Positions 10,040 through 11,217 of a stretch of DNA of 64,000 bases are shown piece by piece. A program made the position numbers and the translations under genes. The stretch is from Escherichia coli. GTDB taxonomy: Bacteria; Pseudomonadota; Gammaproteobacteria; Enterobacterales; Enterobacteriaceae. The stretch lies in NCBI RefSeq assembly GCF_003334785.1, contig NZ_QOWV01000004.1; one strand, given 5' to 3'. Position 1 is the stretch's first letter. Each line of letters begins with the position of its first letter. The notes under the pieces are model-generated. The model worked only from the letters and a program-made list of their open reading frames with translations, did no database searches and was not told where the DNA came from.

Positions 10040-10071
10040 GGCGCGCAGTATAGAGGGTTTGCGCGCCCTTG

Positions 10072-11217
10072 TCACCCCGCGTTGCGCATTCCAATCGCCA
10101 GTGTCGCGGCGATATTACGTGAAGCACGGCAGATATTGTCATAAGCCCCGCGGAATGCTTCGTCCAACGTACCTATGCTGGTCAATACGCTGAAGACCGC
10201 ATCAATGCCATGCTGATGTACAACGCCAACATCATCGGTCAGGCTACCCGCAATGCCAATCACCGGTTTATGGTACTTCTTCGCCACGTTTGCGACACCA
10301 ATCGGTACCTTCCCGTGAATACTCTGGCTGTCAATACGCCCTTCACCGGTGATCACCAGCGTACAATCGTGAATATGTTCCTCCAGATTCAGCGCCGTAG
10401 TGACGATTTCAATACCACTTTTCAGTTCCGCACCAAGAAACGCCATTAGCGCCGCGCCCATACCACCCGCAGCTCCTGCACCGGGGACATCTTTCACATC
10501 AACATGCAGCGCTTTTTTAATGACCTCGGCATAGTGAGAGAGGTTATTGTCCAGCTCAACAATCATCGCTTCACTGGCTCCCTTTTGTGGGCCAAAGATG
10601 CGCGATGCGCCGTTATCGCCCACCAGCGGATTGGTGACATCACAAGCGACGCGAATGACGCAATCTTTTAAGCGCGGATCGAGGCCGGAAATATCAATAT
10701 CATTCAGAGTATTAAGACTACCGCCGCCAAAACCAATTTCATTGCCGTTGGCGTCGCATAATTTCGCCCCCAGCGCCTGTACCATGCCTGCGCCGCCATC
10801 ATTTGTAGCGCTGCCGCCAATGCCGATAATAATGTTTGTCGCACCGCTCTCCAGCGCCTGCAGGATTAACTCGCCTGTGCCGCGTGAAGTGGTCACGAGT
10901 GGATCGCGTTTTTCCGCAGGTACCAGCTCCAGCCCACTGGCCGCCGCCATTTCAATAAACGCGGTTTTGCCATCGCCGGAGATCCCCCAACTGGCATTCA
11001 CTTTCTCGCCCAGCGGCCCTGTAACCCAGGCGTGACGTTCAGCCCCCTGGGTGGCTGCAATCATCGCTTCCACCGTTCCTTCGCCACCGTCGGCAACCGG
11101 AACAGAAACGTACTGTGCATCAGGAAAAATTTCCCGAAATCCTTTTTCTATCGCCTGCGCAACCTCGCTGGCAGATAAACTTTCTTTATAAGAGTCTGGG
11201 GCGATTACGATTTTCAT
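10072..11217 (-). CDS. garK: glycerate 2-kinase
   Basis: ORF 10072-11298; start refined to MKIVIAPDSYKESL; glycerate kinase family; last gene of the garPLRK operon. Confidence 0.9.
   Translation of the reverse strand: MKIVIAPDSYKESLSASEVAQAIEKGFREIFPDAQYVSVPVADGGEGTVEAMIAATQGAERHAWVTGPLGEKVNASWGISGDGKTAFIEMAAASGLELVPAEKRDPLVTTSRGTGELILQALESGATNIIIGIGGSATNDGGAGMVQALGAKLCDANGNEIGFGGGSLNTLNDIDISGLDPRLKDCVIRVACDVTNPLVGDNGASRIFGPQKGASEAMIVELDNNLSHYAEVIKKALHVDVKDVPGAGAAGGMGAALMAFLGAELKSGIEIVTTALNLEEHIHDCTLVITGEGRIDSQSIHGKVPIGVANVAKKYHKPVIGIAGSLTDDVGVVHQHGIDAVFSVLTSIGTLDEAFRGAYDNICRASRNIAATLAIGMRNAG

Follow-up and report, generated by a model that had tools for sequence, protein, structure and literature searches.

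M1 RNA, the RNase P RNA, is stable and abundant, and the promoter of its gene, rnpBp, is a strong promoter of the stringent type. The 5' end of M1 RNA is presumably a primary, unprocessed end, as older literature holds. The system closest to the locus analysed here is the Escherichia coli rnpBp and garPLRK-rnpB unit (bioRxiv 10.1101/2020.03.04.975888; Y. Lee and co-workers 1997/2002; Motamedi et al. 1984) and it is the same object: organism, sequence, -35 and -10 hexamers and role as an internal promoter are identical to those described below, and no element differs. The transcription unit garP-L-R-K-rnpB, with rnpBp as an internal promoter, is a database annotation used as such in the preprint cited, in which rpoZ-spoT-trmH-recG is the contrasting operon devoid of an internal promoter. 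A fragment beginning 40 bp upstream of the -35 hexamer is transcribed in vitro by the sigma-70 holoenzyme (PMC5766169), and in the literature rnpBp is treated as stringently controlled (Jung & Lee 1997; Park et al. 2002). The title of an earlier study reports that rnpB is preceded by tandem promoters (Motamedi et al. 1984). A literature search for the name 'garPLRK-rnpB' gave no match, and one for a P-1 promoter nomenclature for rnpB returned nothing useful. The junction architecture is already annotated and known in E. coli; the present analysis adds a cross-species delimitation of the promoter module (-38 to +1), the finding that the garK tail is unconstrained, and the use of one promoter TGA as the stop codon of three unrelated open reading frames.

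The window, a stretch of 64,000 nucleotides of E. coli DNA analysed as a whole, carries the class A RNase P RNA gene rnpB on the minus strand at 9663-10039, identified with Rfam RF00010 (318.6 bits over the full model, positions 1-367 of 367) and by the RefSeq annotation of an identical genome. On the same strand lies garK (10072-11217), encoding a glycerate 2-kinase of 381 amino acids followed by a stop codon and assigned by annotation and by the NCBIfam equivalog NF007668 (844.6 bits against a cutoff of 686). Further upstream come the other genes of the gar operon, also on the minus strand: garR (11314-12204), garL (12234-13004) and garP (13020-14354), each an open reading frame mapped onto the RefSeq annotation. 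In that annotation, which belongs to an identical K-12-type genome, garP-garL-garR-garK are followed after 32 nt by rnpB, all on one strand. A preliminary description of this DNA had placed the garK stop codon at 10072-10074 of the minus strand and the rnpB 5' end at 10039; open reading frame, Rfam match and RefSeq annotation agree on both coordinates, and the tight same-strand junction that it described stands, with the exact gap being 32 nt (10071-10040) and not about 33. The 401 bp around the junction are 100% identical to those of the K-12-type (O16:H48) and O157:H7 chromosomes, and each of the 5426 complete E. coli genomes contains a match to the garK-rnpB junction; of 5432 matching places in E. 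coli genomes, one lies on a plasmid instead of a chromosome. Elsewhere in the window, Rfam matches SraG, an S15 leader, naRNA4, a rimP leader and two tRNAs (52979-53150, 53380-53494, 55007-55077, 59776-59876, 59968-60041 and 63827-63910), the set expected for the E. coli pnp-rpsO-nusA-metY region.

A consensus scan finds rnpBp as GTGACA-17-TATACT at 10075-10047, a 10/12 sigma-70 match suitably spaced from the RNA 5' end. Counting both strands, 2.2 kb hold three promoter-like sites, of which this scores best; shuffled sequences give 1.8 +/- 1.2. The -35 hexamer GTGACA (-36 to -31; minus strand, 10070-10075) matches TTGACA at five of six positions and overlaps the garK stop codon TGA (10074-10072), which constitutes its positions 2-4; its first position is the third base of the last garK sense codon, GGG (Gly381, 10075-10077), whose first base is a conserved G at -38. 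The overlap with garK is limited to this hexamer, that is, to the stop codon and the third base of the Gly381 codon. The 17-nt spacer (minus strand, 10053-10069), whose first two nucleotides directly follow the stop codon and whose 3' half AAACCCTC is conserved, the -10 hexamer TATACT (-13 to -8; minus strand, 10047-10052; five of six positions against TATAAT) and the GC-rich discriminator GCGCGCC (-7 to -1; minus strand, 10040-10046) all come after the stop codon, the -10 hexamer being wholly intergenic. The Rfam alignment puts +1 of rnpB at the G of 10039, 7 nt past the -10 hexamer; that transcription starts there we infer from this alignment and from older literature. In its -35 and -10 hexamers and its spacing, within the 17 +/- 1 bp expected, rnpBp belongs to the sigma-70 class of promoters, and its conserved GCGCGCC discriminator is that of a stringent-type stable-RNA promoter. 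The preliminary description had the -35/-10 region sitting inside the last garK codons: the -35 hexamer does touch the stop and last codons, but the spacer, -10 hexamer and discriminator are intergenic, so the wording overstates the overlap. Over 10078-10110, about eleven garK codons, no promoter signal is detectable.

The reading that we favour, with a probability of about 0.88, is that the known sigma-70 promoter rnpBp is a compact module of about 38 bp abutting the end of garK, that nothing further upstream is needed, and that the overlap with the coding sequence is a historical by-product. The module consists of a G-N-G at -38 to -36, a TGACA completing the -35 hexamer, the 17-bp spacer, TATACT, the GC-rich discriminator and a +1 that is presumably the 5' G of mature M1 RNA. 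The promoter's own TGA is read as the garK stop codon, with the last glycine codon supplying -38 to -36; more generally, any open reading frame that comes to abut the promoter in the right frame may be expected to run on to this TGA.

The extent of the module was delimited on a comparative sample of 120 species loci, retrieved by an exact 23-nt match at rnpB +1 to +23, which together with the window makes 121 sequences. This choice does not select on the promoter sequence; it does mean that the sample comprises Enterobacteriaceae and Erwiniaceae only and that its sequences are phylogenetically related. Whatever the upstream gene, the -35 hexamer is GTGACA in 112 of the 121 sequences, ATGACA in eight and TTGCAA in one, so that the G/A-TGACA type is kept in 120; the spacer is likewise 17 nt long in 120/121. 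Positions T1, A2 and T6 of the -10 hexamer are invariant, the discriminator is GCGCGCC, TCGCGCC or CCGCGCC in 96/121, and a G at -38 is found in 95% of sequences and in all upstream contexts. Upstream of -38 the frequency of the majority base falls to 0.28-0.72. The module from -38 to +1 is thus nearly invariant over 120 other species irrespective of what lies upstream: garK at 59 loci (its stop being the -35 TGA in 54 of these), rsmI at 40 loci, all of them in Erwiniaceae (36 of 40 with the stop on the -35 TGA), agaR at nine, garR at six, where garK has been lost or cut to a short remnant, and some other neighbour at a few loci, GTGACA being kept beside non-coding sequence as well. Because the promoter is the same in every upstream context, the constraint belongs to the promoter and not to garK. 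Within E. coli, the promoter 43-mer (-39 to +4) is identical in 5377 of 5426 genomes and the adjacent garK 43-mer in 5217. Siccibacter colletis is the sole sampled species with a different upstream half of the promoter, TTGCAA with an 18-nt spacer, and its garK stop codon lies 77 nt before +1.

Natural rearrangements mark the same upstream edge. In four Lelliottia/Enterobacter species garK is absent to within a few nucleotides of the -35 hexamer; the garR stop codon lies 59 nt before +1, and about 5 nt, GAGGG, precede an intact TGACA. At three loci, in Salmonella diarizonae and Citrobacter species, garK persists as a 3' remnant of about 27-40 codons and the rnpB promoter is intact, in keeping with the idea that deletions may reach the promoter edge but not pass it. 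E. coli UTME-10 (NZ_CP157104.1) carries an IS481-family element between garK and the rnpB -35 hexamer (positions 4229-5327 of our extracted locus L122), flanked by a target duplication GCGGG, after which the native sequence restarts 5 nt upstream of the -35 hexamer, at about -41; rnpB at this interrupted locus is annotated as intact and so is its promoter. The insertion gives garK one additional codon (…NAGV-stop), and the transposase open reading frame continues beyond the end of the element as far as the -35 TGA, where it terminates. This trinucleotide accordingly serves as the stop codon of three unrelated open reading frames, those of rsmI, garK and the IS481-family transposase, a pattern that fits a rule of the first available stop; selection for the overlap is not needed.

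The effect of the promoter on garK itself was addressed by a synonymous-divergence test on a codon alignment of 40 complete garK orthologues. The preliminary description had proposed constrained synonymous sites in the last 15 garK codons; there are none. Synonymous differences make up a fraction of 0.54 in these codons, compared with 0.48 for the gene on average (83rd percentile), and their amino-acid identity is low (12th percentile). The last five codons do show low synonymous divergence (0.32, 6th percentile), the signal coming from the final codon and a GCG. The final codon is GGG in 33 of the 40 species, GGA in four, AGG in two and GCG in one, never ending in T or C, and the stop codon is always TGA wherever it falls in the -35 hexamer. 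The claim that garK evolution is tied to promoter function hence stands for the last codon and the stop and fails for the rest of the tail, where divergence is above average; as judged from these alignments, the promoter ties garK coding evolution at these two codons only. At the other end of the gene, codons 1-30 (11128-11217) have a synonymous divergence of 0.15-0.19 against the mean of 0.48, far below any other part of the gene over the 40 species; a second constraint may well overlap the coding sequence here, for instance from translation initiation, mRNA structure or a regulatory site.

These observations bear on a different view of the promoter, in which it would extend into garK, with an UP element at -40 to -60 or tandem promoters being important and constraining the last 15 or more codons. 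The word "tandem" in the 1984 title speaks for such an arrangement, as do a weak promoter-like site at 10259-10231 (9/12) and the low divergence of the last five garK codons. That last signal, however, comes from the final codon and GCG and sits within a 15-codon tail of above-average divergence; the region of the weak site has an average synonymous divergence (0.47-0.50), and three promoter-like sites per 2.2 kb are no more than the shuffles give. A conserved tandem promoter at 10259-10231 was ruled out on these two grounds. Nor is there a conserved A/T-rich block at -40 to -60 of the kind that defines an UP element: the A+T content of -60 to -37 is 38% on average and 33% in E. coli, the sequence is not conserved, and the region is replaceable by an insertion sequence or a deletion, as the four species lacking garK to about -41 and the E. 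coli strain with an insertion there retain an intact promoter. Composition, non-conservation and natural deletion and insertion variants together rule out an UP element or extended promoter in the garK tail as a candidate, and the extended view as a whole appears very unlikely.

On the compact-module reading, rnpB remains open to transcription from upstream. Gar transcripts would start at the CdaR-dependent garP promoter, and the operon appears to have no terminator of its own; transcripts reaching the end of garK would for this reason cross rnpBp into rnpB. A scan of the minus strand over 9300-11500 found no terminator-like site (hairpin plus T-run) between garK and rnpB, so the locus has the layout of an operon with an internal promoter, its genes being on the same strand with no terminator between garK and rnpBp. 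Exposure of this same-strand junction to gar read-through, as put forward in the preliminary description, would follow from the layout and from the lack of an intervening terminator-like site; read-through itself we infer from them. Published Term-seq tables contain no 3' end in garK and have their dominant 3' end at the mature end of rnpB; the cultures were probably not gar-induced, which makes the absence of garK 3' ends weak evidence. Read-through transcripts would be expected to end at the rnpB terminators, which lie in 113-bp tandem repeats (TRF; minus strand, 9406-9685; 2.5 copies, 94% matches). The repeat, which carries the rnpB 3' end, duplicates the last ~20 nt of the gene and its intrinsic terminator hairpin, and rnpB is consequently followed by two or three identical terminators. 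Two identical consecutive rnpB terminators have been reported (PMC5766169), and two PCR bands in an independent paper have the same cause, the duplicated rnpB terminator.

This layout raises the question as to whether gar induction measurably changes M1 RNA synthesis, by occluding or dislodging polymerase at rnpBp or by generating 5'-extended precursors. The shared strand, the 32-nt gap, the lack of a terminator-like site and the annotated garPLRK-rnpB transcription unit speak for such regulatory coupling, and the junction is conserved in 54 of the 59 garK-bearing species. Yet the same junction is swapped for rsmI, agaR, garR or an insertion sequence in other lineages with no change in the promoter, and, with a strong promoter and a stable, abundant product downstream, a catabolic operon of weak to moderate expression should have only a marginal effect. 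CRISPRi directed at gar genes causes no fitness defect, while CRISPRi directed at rnpBp or rnpB does (bioRxiv 10.1101/2020.03.04.975888); as roadblocks within the gar genes are without consequence for fitness, read-through is unneeded for the essential supply of M1 RNA. We regard regulatory coupling as unlikely. That RNase P RNA synthesis could be tuned, through occlusion or 5'-extended precursors, when cells grow on galactarate, glucarate or glycerate we also consider improbable; if true, such coupling would link sugar-acid catabolism to tRNA-processing capacity. In the favoured reading, M1 RNA supply would depend on rnpBp itself despite any read-through.

Read-through transcripts could also be imagined to form an RNA hairpin acting as a processing or termination signal that sets the M1 5' end or stops gar transcripts. 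A GC-rich stem of 8 bp is predicted directly 5' of +1, pairing GGCGCGCA (10068-10061) with UGCGCGCC (10047-10040) on either side of the -10 hexamer, and Escherichia albertii offers one apparent compensatory change (GCGTGC...GCACGC). Across 110 distinct sequences, however, the proportion of cells that pair (64.7%) is close to that in shuffles (64.0%), and the covariation score of 0.112 compares with 0.105, 65 of 500 shuffles attaining it. The fold has a z-score of -1.09, and the stem lacks a U-tract after it. As GCGCGC is self-complementary, composition alone produces the pairing. With covariation no better than that of shuffles, the spacer-discriminator hairpin is effectively refuted as a candidate, and a role for it in processing or termination seems exceedingly improbable.

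In the window, rsmI lies on the minus strand at 34227-35087, some 24 kb from the rnpB promoter, and the intervening 10076-34226 is occupied by gar, prlF/yhaV, aga and yra genes. In Erwiniaceae rsmI directly adjoins rnpB, and in three distant genomes, with RsmI proteins 58-63% identical to that of E. coli, rnpB starts 65, 67 and 163 nt after the rsmI stop codon. The RsmI homologue search covered relatives of at least 88% identity only, the distant taxa being reached through a representative search and contig look-ups. The adjacency in Erwiniaceae and in the three distant genomes makes the rsmI-rnpB order probably ancestral, the aga, gar and other blocks having probably come in afterwards, in front of an essential promoter that had to stay undisturbed. 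The block on the promoter side of rnpB differs between lineages: Erwiniaceae have none, Cedecea and Pluralibacter have aga alone, and E. coli has aga together with gar and more. In a further, improbable reading, the -35 TGA would be a fixed 'stop-codon anchor' of the ancient rsmI-rnpB junction, and garK would have inherited its last codons (…E-G-stop in many species) from rsmI. In E. coli, the end of rsmI (GGGGTAACAG) looks similar to the -35 region (GGGGTGACA), and the rsmI end of one relative (L130), GAGTGATCC, is vaguely like the Erwinia sequence GAGTGACATCC. The rsmI ends of Cedecea and Buttiauxella are unrelated, and a relic is unsupported by other Enterobacteriaceae; the notion of a decayed -35 copy, left at the 3' end of E. 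coli rsmI by island insertion, was rejected as too weak.

The practical consequence concerns genome engineering. Any deletion or recoding at the garK 3' end has to leave 10040-10077 untouched, since a TAA or TAG stop codon, or GGT or GGC as the last glycine codon, modifies the -35 region of an essential gene. Placing polar constructs in the gar genes does rnpB no harm. Beyond such housekeeping the locus matters little; it is a textbook-style case of genome compaction around an essential stable-RNA promoter, and a small illustration of how a promoter of about 38 bp can be an immovable boundary while rsmI, agaR, garR, garK and an insertion sequence are swapped upstream of it.

Compared with the boundaries of islands at tRNA and tmRNA genes, the locus may be likened to them in that a variable block of 0 to about 24 kb lies beside a stable-RNA gene, here rnpB; unlike in those islands, the block lies on the 5' (promoter) side and not on the 3' side, and no integrase or att-like repeat was noticed. 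With rRNA P1 and tRNA promoters such as tyrT, rnpBp shares its dependence on sigma-70, a near-consensus but suboptimal -35 hexamer, a GC-rich discriminator and a stable RNA as its product. It differs from these promoters in lacking an A/T-rich UP element and in being packed against a coding sequence instead of lying in a long intergenic region, and from rrn P1 in particular in having a spacer of 17 bp instead of 16 bp. Like other internal operon promoters located at gene ends, it is on the same strand as the genes around it, follows them without a terminator and, as a promoter of its own, insulates a downstream essential gene from polarity. In contrast to the usual internal promoters, its overlap with coding sequence comprises only the stop and last codons, and the gene downstream encodes a non-coding RNA whose 5' end is presumably the transcription start site.
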